Shown here: positions 3,338-30,608 of the stretch, piece by piece
Numbering within the stretch: the first letter of the stretch is position 1
Layout of the letters: every line of letters starts with the position of its first letter
Origin: a bacterium
GTDB lineage: Bacteria > Patescibacteriota > Minisyncoccia > Phycocordibacterales > Phycocordibacteraceae
Reading direction: 5' to 3'
Length of the DNA: 64,000 bases
Assembly: GCA_037200965.1 (NCBI GenBank)
Contig: JBBCGK010000001.1
Location: forward strand, 640,001 to 704,000
The notes under the pieces: generated by a model
The model's database searches: none
What the model was told of the DNA's origin: nothing
The model's input: the letters and a program-made list of their open reading frames with translations, nothing else
Program-made: the position numbers and the translations under genes

Positions 3338-4831
3338 GTGATCATTCTTCTTGTCGTATCGGGCGGACTTGCAGGCGGCATATTTCTCCGGTCGTTCGCT
3401 GTGTTTGGCTGGCCCCCGTATGTCTTCGCGCTCCTGCTTGCGCTTATCGGAGCGGCCGCTTGGCGGGTAGCGGGCCGGAAGGAGTATCTTCTGTTCGTTC
3501 TGTTTCTTGCGTGCGCCGTACTGGGAGCGTGGCGGTTCTCGATCGCCGAAAAGCCGCTGCCTCCTTCGTTCCTCGCTCAGGTCGGACAGCGCGTACAGTT
3601 TGAAGGCATTGTTGCGTCCGATCCGGACGTGCGCGAAGCGAACCAGCGCGTGATAATCGACGTAGAGCAGGGCGGGGAGAAGACGCGGGTGCTCGCGGTC
3701 GCGAGCCGCTACAGCAAAGTCGGCGTCGGAGACAAGGTGGAAGTATCCGGAACGCTCGCGCTTCCCGAACCGTTCAGTACCGATACTGACGGCGGCCGCA
3801 TGTTCCGGTACGACAAGTTTCTCGAGAAAGACGGGATCAGGTTCCTTTCGGATTTCGCCTCGGTTGCTGTCATAGACCCGGCACCGTGGTACCACCCGTC
3901 CGCGCTTCTCGCGAACACCAAGCACGCCTTCATTGATGGACTTGGCCGGGCGATACCCGAACCGTATGCGACGCTCGCGGCCGGTCTTATCGTCGGCGGA
4001 AAACAGGGCCTTGGGAAAGAGCTGCTCGAAGCCTTCATTCTTTCCGGTCTCGTGCCGATCGTCGTGCTTTCCGGATACAACGTGATGATCGTGGCCGAAG
4101 GAATCATGCGCGCCTTGAAAACGATGCGAGTGCCGTCCCGCGCGTCCGCAATTGCGGGAGCTGTCGCGGTTTTATTGTTCGTACTTATGGCCGGCGCCGG
4201 TTCCGCGAGCATCCGCGCGGGACTCATGGCGCTCATCGCGCTCTATGCCCGGGCTACGGGCCGGTCATACGCGGCGGGGCGCGCACTAATCGTTGTCGCG
4301 ATCCTTATGGTTCTATGGAATCCGTATCTTCTCGCGTTCGACCCTGGCTTCGGGCTTTCGATCGCCGCGACCGCAGGGCTTATCTGGCTCTCGCCGCTGA
4401 TCGAGCTTCGGCTTATATGGATTGCGAGTGATTTCTGTCGAAGCATGCTCGCGACGACGCTCGCCGCGCAGGCCGCGGTCTTGCCACTCCTCCTCTATGA
4501 AACGGGAATGCTCTCGCTTGTCGCGATTCCGGCGAATCTTGTCGTGCTGCCGATGATTCCCCTAGCGATGGCCGCCTCCGCGGTCGCAGCCGTTTCCGGC
4601 ATGTTTCTTGGCGTCTTGGCACCGGTCTTCGCGTTTCCCGCGTATCTTCTGAATGCTTATATCGTCGAGGTCGCACGGTTCTCTTCCGGGCTTCCTTTGG
4701 CCGCGCTCCATATTCCACCGTTTCCTCTCTGGCTTATGGTACTTGCGTATGCCGTTCTGATTTTGTTCGCCCGGTACATATGCAAAGCCCCCGTGGGCGT
4801 GTACGCCCGCGGAGCCTTATCCGCTCCTTGA
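3338..4831 (+). CDS. comEC: ComEC/Rec2-like competence membrane protein (N-terminal DUF4131 plus competence TM region; lacks MBL domain)
   Basis: typical ComEC N-terminal TM topology and DUF4131-like segment; GTG start. Confidence 0.65.
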   Translation: MIILLVVSGGLAGGIFLRSFAVFGWPPYVFALLLALIGAAAWRVAGRKEYLLFVLFLACAVLGAWRFSIAEKPLPPSFLAQVGQRVQFEGIVASDPDVREANQRVIIDVEQGGEKTRVLAVASRYSKVGVGDKVEVSGTLALPEPFSTDTDGGRMFRYDKFLEKDGIRFLSDFASVAVIDPAPWYHPSALLANTKHAFIDGLGRAIPEPYATLAAGLIVGGKQGLGKELLEAFILSGLVPIVVLSGYNVMIVAEGIMRALKTMRVPSRASAIAGAVAVLLFVLMAGAGSASIRAGLMALIALYARATGRSYAAGRALIVVAILMVLWNPYLLAFDPGFGLSIAATAGLIWLSPLIELRLIWIASDFCRSMLATTLAAQAAVLPLLLYETGMLSLVAIPANLVVLPMIPLAMAASAVAAVSGMFLGVLAPVFAFPAYLLNAYIVEVARFSSGLPLAALHIPPFPLWLMVLAYAVLILFARYICKAPVGVYARGALSAP

Positions 4832-15913: not shown

Positions 15914-15914
15914 A

Positions 15915-15958
15915 GGCACATCAAAAAGCCCCGCATATGCGGGGCTTTTTGATGTGCC
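15915..15958. terminator. rho-independent terminator (20-bp stem GGCACATCAAAAAGCCCCGC/GCGGGGCTTTTTGATGTGCC)
   Basis: perfect long hairpin with T-run. Confidence 0.65.
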
Positions 15959-16151
15959 TGCCTTCAGCTTACGTATTTTAGCTGAACGGGCCTTGCGGCC
16001 ACAGGCACGGGGCGATTATACCCCAGCAGCATGAAGTTCCCAAGTAAGGTGTGAATTGCTCATAGTACGTAGGTTGCCTGCGGTGGTATTGCGTTTATGC
16101 GCCCTCTCTTATATAGTCTCCTTGACCCGCTTGCGGGTCGTATTTTCGTAA

Positions 16152-22936: not shown

Positions 22937-24139
<1,203 letters not shown>

Positions 24140-24161
24140 GGTTCCAATCGGTTCGAAAAAG

Positions 24162-24191
24162 AAAAGCCCCGGCCTTGGCCGGGGCTTTTCT
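24162..24191 (+). terminator. rho-independent terminator after tuf
   Basis: GCCCCGGCC-TT-GGCCGGGGC then TTTTCT. Confidence 0.6.
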
Positions 24192-24236
24192 ACTTGCGCT
24201 TTTAGCGGCCATGGTGCATACTCGCGGATACGTTCT

Positions 24237-24617
24237 ATGACAGCAGCGACGATCACTCCGAAGCCCAAGCGCGCCTCGAAAAAGGCGGCTGATGTCGCTG
24301 TACCTCCTGCCGAAGCGAAGCTCCGCATCCGCATCAAGGCCTACGAGCACAAGATCCTCGACCTTTCCGTAAAGCAGATCATGGATACCGCGGCACGTTT
24401 CGACGCGAAGGTCGTGGGCCCGGTGCCGCTCCCGACCGAGATCAAGCGCTGGACGGTAAACCGTTCGACATTCGTCCATAAGGACGCGCGCGAGCAGTTC
24501 GAGATGCGCATCCATAAGCGTCTTATCGACATTCTCTCCCCGAATCCGAAAGTGATCGAAGCGCTGACGAATCTCAATCTTCCGTCGGGCGTCACGATCG
24601 ACGTGAAGATGGTGTAG
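24237..24617 (+). CDS. rpsJ: 30S ribosomal protein S10 with ~25-aa N-terminal extension
   Basis: LRIRIKAYEHKILD...GPVPLPT...HKRLIDIL. Confidence 0.85.
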   Translation: MTAATITPKPKRASKKAADVAVPPAEAKLRIRIKAYEHKILDLSVKQIMDTAARFDAKVVGPVPLPTEIKRWTVNRSTFVHKDAREQFEMRIHKRLIDILSPNPKVIEALTNLNLPSGVTIDVKMV

Positions 24618-24640
24618 CCGTATTTTAAAAGGAATGAAGA

Positions 24641-24668
24641 AAACCGCCGGTAGGCGGTTTCCTTTTTT
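24641..24668 (+). terminator. hairpin AAACCGCC-GGTA-GGCGGTTT plus TTTTTT immediately after rpsJ
   Basis: 8-bp stem plus T6 run. Confidence 0.55.
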
Positions 24669-24724
24669 GTGCTGAAGGCAGGGCCTGTGCTAGGCTTTGA
24701 CGGGACAACTGTGAAGGTAGATCT

Positions 24725-24898
24725 ATGGGTCAAATGAAACGTTTGTGGGGAAAGTTGCAGACTGAAGGCAGGCAACCTCCCAAGGCCGGAAAGACGTCTG
24801 ATCAACTCGGTCTTCACCTTGATGAAGAGGCTCCGGTTGCTCACGACGGGAAGCCGGGCCGGCTCTTCTATCTGGATAAGCCAGAAAATGGAGAGTGA
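24725..24898 (+). CDS. possible small ORF (57 aa) in rpsJ-rplC spacer
   Basis: ATG with GAAGGTAG 7 nt upstream; below the track length cutoff; no homology recognised. Confidence 0.15.
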   Translation: MGQMKRLWGKLQTEGRQPPKAGKTSDQLGLHLDEEAPVAHDGKPGRLFYLDKPENGE

Positions 24899-25072
24899 GC
24901 TTCCGGCGCTACACACCTAACAAAGGCCGCGGGCGAAAGCCCGCGGCCTTGGAGTTTGCATCTTTCGGAGCCTTCGTGTAGAGTGCCCCTATCGCTACGA
25001 ACGGTGCCCTTGGCCGGTCCAATGGCAATTCGCGCTGCTGCGATTGCTGCTAGCGCGTTTTGCTTTAGCCAC

Positions 25073-25705
25073 ATGAAATTCCTACTCGCAAAGAAACAGG
25101 GCATGACCCAGATCTTCACCGACAAAGGCGAGGCTTTTGCCGGTACCGTCCTCGTCGCGGGCCCCGTTACCGTCACTCAGGTGAAGGGCAAGGAGAAGGA
25201 AGGATATTCGGCCGTGCAGGTAGGCTTTGGCGCCCGCAAAGCGAAGAACCTCTCGAAGCCCGTTGCAGGACATCTGAAGGGGAAGAGCTTCGCGGCGCTC
25301 CGCGAGTTCCGCACGGACGATGCGTCCGCGCACGAACTCGGCTCCGAAATTTCCGTCGACACGTTCGCTCCGGGAGACATCGTCCGCGTCTCGGGCGTCA
25401 CCAAGGGCAAGGGTTTCCAGGGCACCGTGAAGCGCCATGGTTTCCACGGCGGGCGCCGCACGCACGGCCAGAAGCACTCGGAGCGCGAGCCGGGGTCGAT
25501 CGGCGGATCGGGCGGCCGCGCCGGAGGCCGGGTCGCGAAGGGCATCCGCATGAGCGGGCGCATGGGCGGCGACCGTGTTACGGTCGAGAACCTGAAGGTG
25601 CTGTCGGTCGACACGAAGGCGGGCACGATCATCATTTCGGGAGCGGTTCCGGGCGCACGCGGCGCGCTTCTTGAGATAACGTCGATGCACGGCAAGAGCG
25701 CATAA
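25073..25705 (+). CDS. rplC: 50S ribosomal protein L3
   Basis: MKFLLAKKQGMTQIF start inside the 24956..25705 ORF. Confidence 0.85.
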   Translation: MKFLLAKKQGMTQIFTDKGEAFAGTVLVAGPVTVTQVKGKEKEGYSAVQVGFGARKAKNLSKPVAGHLKGKSFAALREFRTDDASAHELGSEISVDTFAPGDIVRVSGVTKGKGFQGTVKRHGFHGGRRTHGQKHSEREPGSIGGSGGRAGGRVAKGIRMSGRMGGDRVTVENLKVLSVDTKAGTIIISGAVPGARGALLEITSMHGKSA

Positions 25706-25713
25706 ATTTCCGT

Positions 25714-26472
25714 ATGGCAACCAACAACACGAAAAACAAGAATAAGCTGAATGCCAAAAAGGTTGCGCCTAAGAAGGCGGTCGTTCCCGCTGCTCCGGCG
25801 AAGGTGCTTGAGGCCACGGTGTACGACATGAAGGGCAAGAGCGCCGGGACCATTACGCTTCCGGCAGAAATCTTCGGCAAGCCGTGGCGCCCGGCCATGG
25901 TGCACCAGGTCGCGCTCGCGATGGAAGCGAACGCCCGCCCGGTCGTGGCGAACACGAAGGGCCGCGGCGAAGTGCGCGGCGGAGGCAGGAAGCCCTGGAA
26001 GCAGAAGGGCACCGGCCGCGCTCGCCACGGCTCCTCGCGCTCTCCTATCTGGAGGGGCGGCGGCATCACCTTCGGCCCGACTTCCGAGCGCTCCTACAAG
26101 GAGAAGATCAACCGCAAGCTCCGCGTCGCCGCGCTCTTCTCCGTGCTTTCGAAGAAAGCGAAGGACGGCGAAGTGCTCTTCGTCGACAAATTCACCATGG
26201 GCGCTCCGAAGACCGCCGTGGCCAAGGCCGCGCTCGTCGCGATCGGCTCCGCCGCGGGTGCCGACCGCCTTACGACCAAGGCCAGGAATTCCGCGGTTAT
26301 CGCGCTTGGAAGCAAGAACCTCATGATCGAGAAGAGCTTCCGTAATATCGGCAACCTCGTCGTCGAAGAAGTCAGGAACCTCAACCCGGTGACGCTTCTC
26401 AAGTACCGCTATCTCATAATCGAGCAGCCTGCCGAGGCGTTCAAGACGCTCACGGCGCGCTCCGCAAAATAA
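25714..26472 (+). CDS. rplD: 50S ribosomal protein L4 with Lys-rich N-terminal extension
   Basis: L4 core GGGRKPWKQKGTGRAR. Confidence 0.9.
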   Translation: MATNNTKNKNKLNAKKVAPKKAVVPAAPAKVLEATVYDMKGKSAGTITLPAEIFGKPWRPAMVHQVALAMEANARPVVANTKGRGEVRGGGRKPWKQKGTGRARHGSSRSPIWRGGGITFGPTSERSYKEKINRKLRVAALFSVLSKKAKDGEVLFVDKFTMGAPKTAVAKAALVAIGSAAGADRLTTKARNSAVIALGSKNLMIEKSFRNIGNLVVEEVRNLNPVTLLKYRYLIIEQPAEAFKTLTARSAK

Positions 26473-26474
26473 CC

Positions 26475-26879
26475 ATGGCTATTTTTTCCAAATCAACCCC
26501 CAAGAAGGCCAAGATGCCGAAGAAAGTAACGGTATCCCCGAACGCCGGAGCGCGCGTGCTCAAGTCTTCCCGCGGCCGCGGCGTTTCCGCCTCGACCGGC
26601 CGCACCTCCGACGTGCTTCGCGCACCGTGGCTTTCGGAAAAGGCGCTTATCGCGACCGAGCGCGGCGTGTACGTGTTCGCCATTCCCGAGAAGGCGACGA
26701 AGTACGACGTGGCCGCGGCGGTTACCGCCATCTACAAAGTCACCCCGAAGAAAGTGAACATCGTGAACCTTCCGGCGAAACTTAAGATGATGCGCACGCG
26801 CCGCGGGCTCGGCAAGCAAAGCGTCCGCCGGAAGGCATACGTATTCCTTCAGGCCGGAGACACCATTCAATTCGCATAA
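26475..26879 (+). CDS. rplW: 50S ribosomal protein L23 with N-terminal extension
   Basis: L23 core YVFAIPEKATKYDV... Confidence 0.85.
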   Translation: MAIFSKSTPKKAKMPKKVTVSPNAGARVLKSSRGRGVSASTGRTSDVLRAPWLSEKALIATERGVYVFAIPEKATKYDVAAAVTAIYKVTPKKVNIVNLPAKLKMMRTRRGLGKQSVRRKAYVFLQAGDTIQFA

Positions 26880-26885
26880 ACCCTT

Positions 26886-27734
26886 ATGAAATCCTATCGC
26901 CCGACCAGCAAGAGCCGCCGTGCCATGACGACGCTCCCGTACAAGGAGCTCCTTTCCGGCGCGAAGCCGCATAAGCCGCTCATGGGCTCGAAGAAGCGCC
27001 AAGGGGGCCGCAACAACGCGGGCCGCGTGAGCGTCCGGCACCAGGGCGGCGGGCACAAGCGCCTCTATCGCGACGTCGATTTCAAGTACGACAAGAAAGG
27101 AATCCCGGCGAAGATCGAGACCGTCGAATATGATCCGTATCGCTCGGGCTTCATCGCGCTCGCGCTCTATGCCGACGGCGCCCGCCGCTACGTGCTCGCG
27201 CCCAAGGGTCTTTCGGTCGGCGATTCCTTCATCGTCGCCGAGGATGCGCCGCTTAAGAGCGGCAACCGACTCCCGATCGGGAAGATTCCCGTCGGCACCT
27301 TCATCTATAACGTCGAACTTCGCCCGGGCGCAGGCGCGCTTCTCGCCCGTTCTGCGGGAAACTACGCGGAAGTGGTCGCGCACGACCAGGGCTATGCTCA
27401 GGTTAAATTGCCGTCGACCGAAATCCGCAGGGTGTCCGATCTTTGCTGGGCTTCGGTGGGTTCGGTGGGGAACGAGGAATACAATCTCGTGAACCTCGGT
27501 AAGGCGGGCCGCTCGCGCTGGCTTGGCATCCGCCCGACGGTTCGCGGTACGGCCATGAACCCGGTCGACCATCCGCATGGCGGCGGCGAAGGAAGGCAGG
27601 GCCGCGGACTCAGGAGGGCGAAGAGCGCCTGGGGCAAGCCGACCGGCAAAGGCCAGAAGAGCCGCACGCCGAAGAAGTACTCGAACGTCTTCATCGTCTC
27701 GAGGAGGAAAGTCGGGAAGAAGAGGAAAGGATAA
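26886..27734 (+). CDS. rplB: 50S ribosomal protein L2
   Basis: L2 motifs GGGHKRLYR, RNPVDHPHGGGEG. Confidence 0.95.
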   Translation: MKSYRPTSKSRRAMTTLPYKELLSGAKPHKPLMGSKKRQGGRNNAGRVSVRHQGGGHKRLYRDVDFKYDKKGIPAKIETVEYDPYRSGFIALALYADGARRYVLAPKGLSVGDSFIVAEDAPLKSGNRLPIGKIPVGTFIYNVELRPGAGALLARSAGNYAEVVAHDQGYAQVKLPSTEIRRVSDLCWASVGSVGNEEYNLVNLGKAGRSRWLGIRPTVRGTAMNPVDHPHGGGEGRQGRGLRRAKSAWGKPTGKGQKSRTPKKYSNVFIVSRRKVGKKRKG

Positions 27735-28668
27735 TTTTACAAGGGTAATCCCTAATTCCTGCCACCAAACCCAGTGCCCTGAACGAGCGTGAGCAGACGC
27801 TCCTCCTGCTCGGCAAGCGTCTTCGTGCGGCGGTTGAACTTCCAGGCGATCTCTCCGACGAAGAGGTACAGATGCGTACGGCGCATGCCGCCGATGCATC
27901 CGAGACGACGCTTCAAGAGCCCCCAGAAGCCCTCGATGTTGTTCGTATGCACGTCGCCGCGTACGAGCTCTCCGCCGTCATGATCCACGTACTCGTGACG
28001 GTACCCCCGCTTCTTGAGGCCGCGGTATGTTTTGAAGCCGTCGGTATACACGTACGCTCCCTCCGGCACCAGCCGCTCGATCGTGCTGAAGATGGTCCTC
28101 CAATCAAGCTTCTTGGGGAGTATGGCGACATATACCTGTCCGGAGGTCCGCGAAAAGAGCCCGAAGATGGGAAGCTTGTCGGTCCCGTGACCGCGCTTCG
28201 TTTCCAGACGCCGGATGTGGAGACGTTTGTTCTTGCGCTGGCCGCCGATGTACGTTTCGTCCATCTCGATTGGACCGGGAAGCACGGCTGGCTGGTCAGC
28301 CGTCATGACCGTACGGAGATGGAGTGCCATGCGCTCCACGCGCGAATGCGGTATTCCCGTCTCCTCAACGATACGTTTGATCGTCCGCTCCCTGAGGAAG
28401 ACACGTATGCACTTCCGCCACTCGGCTTCCGTGCTGCGGATGCCCTCAACTGGAGCTGCGTGCCCGCTCCACTCGCGTCTGCACCGCCTGCACTTCAGTT
28501 TGTTCCTGCGGAGTTTCCAGGCACGGCGGAAGGCGCAATACGGACATACAGGAGCGGGCATATATGGTGGCACTATTAGGTATTGCACCACTGTGCCCGT
28601 CAGAGAGCCTCACGCAAGGATATTTCAAAGATATGTGGTGGCAGAGTTAGGGATTACCCTTTACAAAA
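27735..28668 (-). mobile_element. IS1595-family insertion sequence (934 bp) with ~33-bp terminal inverted repeats, inserted immediately after the rplB stop codon
   Basis: TTTTACAAGGGTAATCCCTAATTCCTGCCACCA (27735-27767) vs reverse complement of GTGGTGGCAGAGTTAGGGATTACCCTTTACAAAAG (28634-28668). Confidence 0.8.
27752..28591 (-). CDS. IS1595-family (ISXO2-like) transposase
   Basis: N-terminal CPYC...CRRC zinc ribbon, DETYIGG, HTNNIEGFWGLLKR; stop inside the IR; alternative start at 28561. Confidence 0.85.
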   Translation of the reverse strand: MVQYLIVPPYMPAPVCPYCAFRRAWKLRRNKLKCRRCRREWSGHAAPVEGIRSTEAEWRKCIRVFLRERTIKRIVEETGIPHSRVERMALHLRTVMTADQPAVLPGPIEMDETYIGGQRKNKRLHIRRLETKRGHGTDKLPIFGLFSRTSGQVYVAILPKKLDWRTIFSTIERLVPEGAYVYTDGFKTYRGLKKRGYRHEYVDHDGGELVRGDVHTNNIEGFWGLLKRRLGCIGGMRRTHLYLFVGEIAWKFNRRTKTLAEQEERLLTLVQGTGFGGRN

Positions 28669-28671
28669 GAA

Positions 28672-28700
28672 AAAGCCCCGCCAGACCGGCGGGGCTTTTT
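28672..28700. terminator. bidirectional hairpin terminator GCCCCGCC-AGACC-GGCGGGGC flanked by A- and T-runs
   Basis: 8-bp GC stem with AAAAA upstream and TTTTT downstream. Confidence 0.55.
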
Positions 28701-28709
28701 CTTTCCGGC

Positions 28710-29495
28710 TTATTGGTATTCGGGCTTCAAGATGTCCGCGAAATCGGAACGCGGCAGGCGCACGGTCTGCGGACCTATGGCATACGGGCCGACGGCGTAA
28801 GGAGGGAAGAAAATAAGGAGATCGGTACCGTCAAGCGCAAAGAACTGGAAATTTCCCGCGTCGTCCGGCGACGTTCCGGTGTCGACGAAATCCGGAAGCG
28901 CGTACTCCCCGAGCGCTGCGTACAGGAATGCCCGCGATGCTCTGGAGAGCGCGTCGAGATACGGCGCGCTACGCATGAACAGATCGCCAAGTTGGAGTGC
29001 CTTGCCGGTCGTGGAATCGAATGTGAACGTGCGGTAGTAGCTGTTGGGGTGCGCACCGAGCGTATCCTCGTAAATACTGAAGACATAGGAGAGCGTACGG
29101 GGTGACGCATATGCCGCATACTCGATATCCTGCGCGTATTTCTTATCAGGCCCGAGTTCCTGAAGTTTTATATCTTCTTCCGTAAGGTTTCCGAGGCGGT
29201 TCTGGTTCTTGAATTCCGCTTCCGCGGCCAGTACCCATGTCTCCATGACCTTTGCCGCATGTGCGTCCGCCTCCGCCCCGGCGGTTACAAGAAGCGGGGT
29301 TGATGCGGGATAGATGGCGTCGATGAGGTAGTAGTCGGCGTGGTCCGCAACCGTCTTGGAGGTCGTAGTTGCATTTTCCCCGGAAGGGACAGGGGCCACT
29401 CCGGGTGCCGGATTCTCGGCCATGTACCAGAGAAGGCAGGCAAGTATGGCAACCAGCACCGCACCGAGCGCGATCCGTTCGCAAGTGGTGTTCAT
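28710..29495 (-). CDS. membrane-anchored DUF3298/RsiV-like domain protein
   Basis: N-terminal anchor; C-terminal region resembles the DUF3298 family; recognition from memory only. Confidence 0.4.
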   Translation of the reverse strand: MNTTCERIALGAVLVAILACLLWYMAENPAPGVAPVPSGENATTTSKTVADHADYYLIDAIYPASTPLLVTAGAEADAHAAKVMETWVLAAEAEFKNQNRLGNLTEEDIKLQELGPDKKYAQDIEYAAYASPRTLSYVFSIYEDTLGAHPNSYYRTFTFDSTTGKALQLGDLFMRSAPYLDALSRASRAFLYAALGEYALPDFVDTGTSPDDAGNFQFFALDGTDLLIFFPPYAVGPYAIGPQTVRLPRSDFADILKPEYQ

Positions 29496-29599
29496 GCGAG
29501 AAAGTGTAGCACCCGCATATCAGGGAAAAATGAAGGGCTCCGGAATAGCCAAATGAAAGGGCCCGGGCGGTAATGCCACCCGGGCCCCCCAACGAAGGC

Positions 29600-30049
29600 T
29601 TAAGATTTGCAGGGACCTGTCCCGCAGGTTTTGCAACTTTTGCACGTTCCGTGTCTTATCCCTTTTCTCTTTCGGGAATTTCGCGCCTCTTCTCCGGGCA
29701 TGGCTTCGCCGAAGCGCGCGAAATAGAGCTTCGAGGTTCTCGCGTACCCTCTGCGGGAGCTTGCGTTCGGCTCAAGTTCAGGCTGATGGTGGAGGAAACC
29801 GCCGAAGACCGTCTGACAGTCCGAAGCGTACTTCTTCGTCATCAGGATATGTTCATGCCAGGCCCAGTCGATCATGTGAGACGGTGCCAGAGATTTGCGC
29901 GGATTTTCGCGGCAAAGCGTGTAGAACCGGCGCAAACCGAGAACGCACATCTTTGCGACCGGTTCGGTAAGACGCAAGGCAAGTTTGTGCTCCACTGCCC
30001 CGAGGTCGAGTCTCCGGATAGCGCTTGGAAGGTTCTTTTTGACGGCCAT
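29600..30049 (-). CDS. small DUF1399-like protein with Cys-rich C-terminal tail
   Basis: DWAWHEHILMTKKYASDC..FGGFLHH resembles the WHxHxL motif of GRDP/DUF1399; tail HGTCKSCKTCGTGPC. Confidence 0.3.
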   Translation of the reverse strand: MAVKKNLPSAIRRLDLGAVEHKLALRLTEPVAKMCVLGLRRFYTLCRENPRKSLAPSHMIDWAWHEHILMTKKYASDCQTVFGGFLHHQPELEPNASSRRGYARTSKLYFARFGEAMPGEEARNSRKRKGIRHGTCKSCKTCGTGPCKS

Positions 30050-30257
30050 CTCGGCCTCCTGCTGTGATTGCCGTTCCAGAGTAGCAAGGCGCGCAGCACC
30101 AGGTCAACCATAGAATCATACAAGTATAATGTGTTTTGTCTACGTTTTAAAACGGCCTTGCAAGTACGAGCTCTTTTGAAACGGTACGATTTGACTCTTT
30201 ATCCCGGCTCCTGTATCTTGCACCTATCTCGCGCTATGCGCGGGCTTTACCTTACTC

Positions 30258-30608
30258 ATGTCCCGATCGCTCAAGAAAGGTCCCTACGTGGACGCGAAGC
30301 TCATAAAGAAGCTTCGCGACAAGAAACCGGCTACCGCCGGGGTGATTAAGACGTGGGCGAGAGGTTCCCAGATCGCCCCGGAGATGGTCGGCTTCACGTT
30401 CGGCGTCTATAACGGACAGAAGCACCTCGAGGTGCTCGTCTCCGAGGAGATGGTAGGGCACCGCCTCGGCGAATTCTCCCCGACCAAGAAGTTCGTCCGG
30501 CACGGAGGCAAGATGCAGAAGGAGCTCGAGCAGAAGCGCCAGGAGTCCGAGATCGCGTCCGCGAAGGCCGCCTCAGCCGCTCCTGCCAAGGCCCCGGCAA
30601 AGAAATAA
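30258..30608 (+). CDS. rpsS: 30S ribosomal protein S19 with Ala/Lys-rich C-terminal extension
   Basis: SLKKGPYVD...KHLEV. Confidence 0.9.

Follow-up and report, generated by a model that had tools for sequence, protein, structure and literature searches.

The 455-nt spacer that separates the ribosomal-protein genes rpsJ and rplC (24618-25072, plus strand) in a 64-kb window of a Kaiserbacteria-like Patescibacteria (Paceibacterota) genome, the window being the whole stretch of 64,000 nucleotides that was analysed, is probably an operon boundary composed of four modules: the terminator of rpsJ, a filler, a promoter, and a structured 5' leader. The leader is very probably a genuine conserved structured cis-element, and comparison among related genomes makes it likely that it acts by transcription attenuation, controlling the operon rplC-rplD-rplW-rplB (25073-27734, plus strand; gene calls and Pfam), which is the regulated unit in the reading proposed here. 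The initial annotation of the spacer had raised the idea of a relocated S10-operon leader or attenuator; this idea is supported for 24956-25072, which lies outside the features listed at that time, and the element is not a homologue of the E. coli S10 leader. Its best reading is a new ribosomal-protein leader family that would be analogous to, and not homologous with, that of E. coli. We lean slightly towards the view that no cis-regulatory leader family for ribosomal proteins has been described before from the Candidate Phyla Radiation (CPR), and that this one, with a CGCUAYG-P1-CCNAUGGC sensor, two platforms, and feedback on L3-L4-L23-L2 in Kaiserbacteria-like Paceibacterota, arose independently of the S10 leaders of E. 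coli and Firmicutes once rpsJ had become a transcription unit of its own.

Conservation of the promoter and leader upstream of rplC

For comparison, 80 related loci were fetched via the L3 protein, of which 77 also contain rpsJ; the closest rplC relatives are metagenome-assembled genomes labelled Candidatus Paceibacterota, Kaiserbacteria and Minisyncoccia. When the spacer was compared with related loci by blastn and nhmmer, only its last ~115 nt (spacer positions ~338-450) gave matches, which adjoin rplC in ~18 loci whatever the length of the gap, and nothing 5' of ~24955 was found to be conserved. Conservation in relatives had been set beforehand as a check on the structure, and it was found for the 3' end of the spacer only. 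Both the conservation of this segment and its genomic position are matters of direct observation: promoter and leader are visible by eye in 23 loci retrieved via the L3 protein alone. The promoter of the rplC operon (24956-24984, plus strand) consists of a -35 box TTGCAT (24956-24961), a 17-nt spacer, and a -10 box TAGAGT (24979-24984), and the pattern TTGCAT (or a one-base variant)-N17/18-TAnAGT is kept in all 23 of the leader-bearing loci found via L3. A sigma-70 consensus scan missed this promoter because TTGCAT fits TTGACA at only three of six positions.

Downstream of the promoter lies the structured 5' leader of rplC (24985-25072, plus strand; ~88 nt), which belongs to the subtype that we call type I and is matched by our covariance model R1 at 24985-25066. 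Relatives share a fixed layout, in which the terminator of the upstream gene is followed by TTGCAT-N17-TA(G/T)AGT, by ~8 nt, and by the invariant CGCUAYG. There follow the hairpin P1, variable in length and sequence, and then CCUAUGGC, CCAAUGGC or CCUCCAGC; the 3' end is formed by a GC-rich hairpin and a sequence resembling UUUUGCUUU, which stops a few nucleotides short of the ATG of rplC. The sensor is accordingly defined by the invariant CGCUAYG, the covarying hairpin P1, and CCNAUGGC.

Model R1, built from 15 sequences, gave 17 matches at E<1e-10 among the 80 genome loci, every one of them directly upstream of rplC, and in the 64-kb window its sole strong match, even with filters off, is that at 24985-25066 (57.5 bits, E 1e-12). 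Metagenomes were scanned with the promoter and CGCUAYG as the only criteria, so that the scan is unbiased for the structure downstream. It returned at least 120 loci, holding at least 77 distinct leaders; among the matches listed, L3 follows each of the 69 leaders that could be evaluated (those that no contig end truncates), and S10 is located 79-3424 nt upstream. Assemblies from Hainich groundwater account for several of the hits. The family thus counts at least ~100 distinct copies, and every evaluable copy is directly upstream of rplC; across genomes, among the matches listed, the element is located only in the 5' untranslated region of a ribosomal-protein operon. Two subtypes share the one sensor: type I, which includes the copy in the window (71 sequences, alignment A5), and type II (30 sequences, alignment A6, made with plain MAFFT), which has an extra hairpin, P2, ahead of a shorter terminator.

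No match to Rfam 15 was obtained in the whole window at the gathering score. Searches of 24100-25300 with a cut-off of E<=10, and of L136, the homologue with the highest score, with a cut-off of E<=1, gave nothing relevant, the sub-threshold returns being terminator look-alikes only. Literature searches found no earlier description of this leader.

A TTG at 24956, in the frame of rplC, would allow the conserved segment to be read as an N-terminal extension of L3. This reading was rejected: 50 of 95 leaders contain in-frame stops, and the lengths of the homologues are spread over all residues modulo 3, with no period of three.

Some sub-clades carry further conserved elements between the terminator of the leader and the gene. 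An extra conserved segment of ~200 nt, starting with AAUGACCCCAGCCGCAUAU, lies between the terminator of the leader and rplC in four loci (L005, at 3797-4000, and L006, L112 and L149), and a small hairpin, GAAAUCUnnGAUUUC, stands just before rplC in six (L004, L025, L132, L177, L184 and L188).

Shine-Dalgarno sequences are missing from all 16 secure genes of the window, and in several of these a TAnAnT box stands 6-9 nt ahead of the ATG (606, 46634, 48032, 54958 and others). This suggests that mRNAs are mostly leaderless in this genome; since they appear to be so, the 88-nt leader of rplC would be exceptional within it.

Mutually exclusive pairings within the leader

The sensor domain (24993-25026, plus strand) contains the invariant CGCUACG (24993-24999), the hairpin P1, and a proposed helix P0. 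P1 spans 24999-25019 and has an internal mismatch, A25001.G25017; in the 71 type-I sequences it has compensatory changes at four of its five pairs, with 92% of cells paired. P0 would join GCUA (24994-24997) to UGGC (25023-25026) and may close the sensor. Downstream of P1 are two further helices: the antiterminator helix A (25023-25049, plus strand), identified by covariation, in which UGGCAAU(u)CGC pairs with GCGAUUGCUG, and the terminator helix B with its U-tract (25031-25066, plus strand), in which CGCGCU (25031-25036) pairs with AGCGCG (25052-25057). The U-tract, UUUUGCUUU (25058-25066), ends 6 nt 5' of the ATG of rplC, and a GC-rich hairpin with a U-rich tract is therefore found between the promoter and the open reading frame (ORF) that it would regulate.

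Comparative evidence demonstrates the covariation of P1, B and A. RNAalifold recovers P0 (GCU/AGC), P1, and the long terminator helix, and over P0, P1 and B together 91.8% of cells in the 71 type-I sequences are standard pairs, as against 21-47% when the 3' partners are slid by 1-3 columns. Eleven of these pairs have changed on both sides, and the observed covariation score was reached by none of 500 shuffles. For B on its own, compensatory changes are present in 7 of 12 pairs, with 92.5% of cells paired. Helix A, which pairs (C)CAG/UAUGG-CAAAUCGC with GCGAUUGCUG/..CUAU, covaries though it is outside the covariance model: in type I, columns 81/124 hold CG 30 times, UA 23 and UG 11; columns 82/122 hold AU 33, GC 22 and GU 13; and columns 87/105 hold AU 30, GC 25 and UA 2.

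The outer 5' nucleotides of helix A (UGGC or CAGC) are common to the 3' strand of P0, and its inner nucleotides (UCGC, or CGC in the window) are common to the 5' arm of the terminator. P0, A and B consequently form a chain of mutually exclusive pairings. Type II follows the same logic with other sequences: its antiterminator, CAAUGGC:GCYAUUG, is 92% paired in the 30 aligned sequences, against 15-49% in slid controls, and has double changes in three of seven pairs; the partner GCYAUUG is formed by the 5' arm and loop of the terminator, which is also present. In both types, then, a conserved alternative helix excludes the terminator. The order of folding is equally evident from the predicted structures, in that for 65 of 71 homologues the minimum free energy (MFE) fold of the nascent transcript, truncated downstream of the 3' arm of A, contains helix A, and for 64 of 71 the MFE fold of the full-length leader contains B, as does that of the window's own copy.

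The possibility that the whole spacer, its 3' part included, is non-functional drift, and that conservation there reflects a shared promoter and close kinship, would accord with covariation that partly follows clades and with the invariance of P0. It is nevertheless extremely unlikely: the identity of L3 among carriers goes down to ~60% and the helices are still kept by compensatory changes, slid-partner controls drop to 15-50% pairing, none of the upstream insert is conserved in those genomes, and two platform variants keep the same logic.

Proposed function and relation to known leaders

We hypothesize that the leader works as follows. During transcription helix A would form first, and RNA polymerase would read through into rplC. 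If a factor bound the sensor and held UGGC in P0, A would remain incomplete; B would then form, and transcription would stop before rplC. The factor would most likely be a surplus ribosomal protein from the operon. What we infer is that termination does occur, which way the switch works, and what its ligand is.

Several observations weigh against this proposal. P0 is 89-99% paired yet almost invariant, so covariation gives no proof of it, and it is part of the MFE fold of only 7 of the 71 full-length sequences. A good part of the covariation separates two large sub-clades, so that there are few independent events per pair (~2-3). The window's copy is among the weaker members of the family (57.5 bits, as above, with a leader fold z of -1.7), and its single-sequence fold lacks P1 and, in the nascent MFE structure, helix A, for which reason the structural claims rest on comparative data. 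The U-tract, UUUUGCUUU, is not continuous, and GCAAA upstream can pair with it; the hairpin could on that account act on translation or stability. Finally, no consistent mimicry of ribosomal RNA (rRNA) was detected against the 16S and 23S rRNA of E. coli, the only rRNA compared: an 8/9-mer match of CCAAUGGC(A) at position 2703 of the E. coli 23S rRNA is within chance expectation. Among the fetched loci there was no Patescibacteria 23S rRNA. A likeness of the base of P1 (GUAC...GGAC) to the sarcin-ricin loop was considered and rejected, as U-A is exchanged for A-U in the manner of a Watson-Crick pair and C-G takes the place of A.G in many copies.

The imperfect U-tract and its partial pairing with GCAAA would also suit a leader that is a translational operator or an mRNA-stability element, with B within the 30S footprint of a start codon lacking a Shine-Dalgarno sequence; B, stabilised by a factor, would block initiation, or would merely protect the 5' end. 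The position of B, which ends 6-15 nt before the ATG in most copies, is in keeping with this, structure near the start could matter in a genome without Shine-Dalgarno usage, and the E. coli S10 leader is known to affect both transcription and translation. We consider such a function unlikely, however, because in several sub-clades (L004, L025, L005 and L174) hairpin and U-tract are kept even though the ATG has moved 35-200 nt away, which fits termination better than occlusion, and because a covarying antiterminator that excludes the terminator is a hallmark of attenuators.

The ligand has about an even chance of being a ribosomal protein encoded in the operon. L3, L4, L23 and L2, the only proteins that the operon encodes in this genome, are the candidates, L4 by the precedent of E. 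coli and L3 by proximity. Such a protein is the likeliest ligand given the exclusive tie of the leader to a ribosomal-protein operon, an association that is the usual signature of autogenous control (PMC7247131). It is quite unlikely that the leader senses some other signal instead, such as a small molecule or alarmone, a factor of the NusA/NusG type, the speed of RNA polymerase, or nucleoside triphosphate levels: all copies among the matches listed are tied to rplC and none to another gene, and the sensor is small, consisting of a single hairpin whose loop varies, together with an asymmetric internal loop. On the other side of the balance are the lack of detected mimicry of E. coli rRNA and the combination of one sensor with alternative platforms (types I and II), an architecture common to riboswitches.

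The S10 leader of E. coli combines L4-mediated, NusA-dependent transcription attenuation with translational repression. The Patescibacteria leader resembles it in being the 5' leader of an operon containing L3, L4, L23 and L2, in being structured, with a final hairpin and U-tract that end a few nucleotides short of the first start codon, and in its feedback by premature termination, which here we infer. It differs in having no homology of sequence or structure to the E. coli leader (and no match in Rfam 15), in standing after rpsJ and its terminator, directly before rplC, so that S10 is outside the controlled unit, and in possessing an explicit covarying antiterminator. With the ribosomal-protein leaders (r-leaders) of Firmicutes, for example that of infC-rpmI-rplT in B. 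subtilis, which responds to L20, and the S10 r-leader cited in PMC7247131, it would share the principle that occupancy of the sensor chooses between an antiterminator and an intrinsic terminator; unlike these it has an unrelated fold, occurs in another phylum and at another position in the operon, and has two platforms sharing one sensor. Closest in gene context is the L4 r-leader candidate of Archaeoglobi (Eckert and Weinberg 2020), which lies directly upstream of rplC-rplD-rplW-rplB and is purely computational (PMC7247131). The leader described here is likewise a computational candidate only. The Archaeoglobi element, by contrast, is archaeal, Rfam gave no match to the Patescibacteria leader at E<=10, and the logic of a bacterial-type intrinsic terminator would be unexpected there.

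We know of almost nothing that has been established on gene regulation in Patescibacteria. These bacteria are uncultivated and have reduced genomes, and neither Rfam 15 nor literature searches yielded a structured regulatory RNA specific to them. Should the present interpretation be right, autogenous control of ribosome synthesis would have been re-invented in this lineage, and, with L3 rather than L4 as the ligand, the leader would represent a new regulator-operator pair. Being small, the RNA is easy to synthesise, which suits it to in vitro assays of termination and of the binding of recombinant L3, L4, L23 and L2, and in annotation it could mark the start of the rplC operon. The usually rigid S10 cluster would consist here of two transcription units, which would account for the cargo found at their junction.

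Remainder of the spacer and the surrounding genes

The gene order at the locus is fusA, tuf, rpsJ, the 455-nt spacer, rplC, rplD, rplW and rplB, and a contig of a second assembly (JAATEX010000136.1 of GCA_015655515.1) is an identical copy of the region. Gene calls and Pfam bear out the length and position of the spacer, which is bounded by rpsJ (24237-24617, plus strand; PF00338 Ribosomal_S10, E 5.8e-34, residues 30-124) and rplC (25073-25705, plus strand; Ribosomal_L3). As a whole it folds better than shuffled sequences (z -3.8). The premise of the initial annotation that rpsJ normally abuts rplC is false in this lineage: in the 77 relatives with both genes the gap ranges over 3-2969 nt, with a median of ~150 nt, and a spacer of 455 nt is consequently ordinary in the clade.

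That rpsJ is followed by an intrinsic terminator, as originally proposed, proved correct. The terminator scan calls it at 24637-24670 (plus strand), with the stem AAGAAAACCGCC/GGCGGTTTCCTT and a T-run; the arms, at 24637-24648 and 24653-24664, are followed by CCTTTTTTGT, and the hairpin has -16.7 kcal/mol and z -2.9. It is a feature of the clade, since 23 of the 24 related loci that have the leader show a terminator-like hairpin within ~100 nt 3' of rpsJ, and the shortest spacers among relatives (151-188 nt) comprise terminator, promoter and leader only. Upstream of rpsJ there is a promoter-like sequence, TTGCGC-N17-CATACT, located 3' of the tuf terminator. With terminators on both sides and a promoter-like site of its own, rpsJ looks monocistronic; because it has its own terminator and apparently its own promoter, the S10 cluster is split, and rplC-rplD-rplW-rplB is separately started. 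The hairpin after tuf is itself terminator-like (24171-24186, followed by a T-run).

At a junction that leads from a terminator to a promoter, insertions do no harm, and the slot so created holds variable cargo in relatives and an orphan filler in the window. Long gaps between rpsJ and rplC in relatives contain mutually unrelated ORFs, almost none of which were grouped by all-against-all BLAST; judged from these sequences, the junction is an insertion hotspot in the clade. The cargo, as identified by reading the sequences, includes pyrF- and pyrE-like genes (L026, 2143-4000), an MsrB-like gene with membrane proteins (L077, 1846-4000), an NYN-domain protein (L004, 1704-4000), a kinase-like protein with a KdsC-like phosphatase (L061, 1032-4000), and a DoxX-like protein.

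In the window the slot is occupied by ~280 nt (24671-24950), which are probably a functionless, lineage-specific filler or decayed remnant. The insert proper (24671-24922, plus strand), which holds copies of CTGAAGGCAGG and an ORF of 57 codons, is without similarity in relatives: blastn, tblastx and tblastn searches with 24660-24960 found nothing, whether in 200 related loci or elsewhere in the window, and on the empty blastn and tblastx results a decayed cargo gene or a repeat was rejected as its origin. Neither the 57-aa ORF nor the two smaller features of the filler, the 11-mer repeats and a GC-rich hairpin with a GAAA loop, occur in any relative. The repeats were described correctly as two copies of CTGAAGGCAGG, found exactly at 24672 and 24762 (the minus strand has a third exact copy at 15957-15967), and their number is only marginally above chance: with one mismatch allowed there are four matches against 0.92 expected, and four were reached in 1 of 100 shuffles. 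The earlier suggestion of a small RNA finds no support for the middle of the spacer, which is not conserved, has no recognisable promoter, and folds in an unremarkable way (24669-24922, z -1.8). The perfect GC stem with its GAAA tetraloop is confirmed, and at 12 bp (24923-24934 and 24939-24950) it is longer than the 10 bp first given. This hairpin (24923-24950, plus strand; -28.5 kcal/mol, z -4.9) sits 5 nt 5' of the -35 box, lacks a canonical U-tract, and was not called by the terminator scan; its position is that at which relatives have the terminator of the upstream gene.

An open frame does exist at 24725-24898, as the initial annotation reported, and the ribosome-binding site assigned to it carries no weight, since the secure genes of the window do without Shine-Dalgarno sequences. 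That it encodes a real micro-protein, with the GC/GAAA hairpin as its terminator, might be argued from the intact frame flanked by two hairpins, and from the real cargo genes that occupy the same slot in relatives, each with a terminator just 5' of the rplC promoter. We nevertheless consider this very unlikely and rejected the ORF as a gene. There is no tblastn match in the 80 related loci, no homologue in metagenome contigs or among 5.8 billion proteins, and no Pfam match, and no gene is recorded in either of the two assemblies that have an identical rpsJ. Codon usage is non-genic: the GC content at third codon positions is 0.51, against 0.66-0.86 in real genes, and the codon score of -0.13 per codon, against an in-frame mean of 0.50, is below that of 98.5% of genuine 57-codon windows. 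A properly spaced promoter is also lacking.

The S10 protein has an N-terminal extension of ~29 residues (24237-24323), rich in Ala, Pro and Lys, the Pfam domain beginning at residue 30; it is a variable extension, since tblastn matches in relatives mostly start at residues 20-29. After rplB a transposase gene and two genes on the opposite strand break the ribosomal cluster, which restarts with rpsS-rplV-rpsC at 30258. The transposase, of the IS1595 family, is on the minus strand at 27752-28591 (DDE_Tnp_IS1595, E 3e-28), and the two minus-strand ORFs, at 28710-29495 and 29600-30049, complete the interruption between rplB and rpsS (27752-30049); the short contig of GCA_015655515.1 ends within rplB, just 5' of it. 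A scan for tRNA and tmRNA found none within the window.

Two further elements of the window were recorded. An apparently intergenic stretch at 15914-16094 on the minus strand is a candidate small RNA, for which Rfam returned only sub-threshold terminator look-alikes. It has a TATAAT-like box, a fold of ~60 nt resembling a three-way junction (a GUGCCUG/CAGGCAC closing stem, a GGCC-GCAA-GGCC hairpin, and a UUCAGC/GCUGAA hairpin), and a clean intrinsic terminator, AAAAAGCCCCGC-auau-GCGGGGCUUUUU; the third exact copy of CTGAAGGCAGG lies within it. Upstream of rpsS, at 30190-30257, where model R1 gives no match, a TTGCAC box is followed by a hairpin, CGCGC-UAU-GCGCG, and a U-rich stretch ~25 nt before the ATG, and this element may be another leader.

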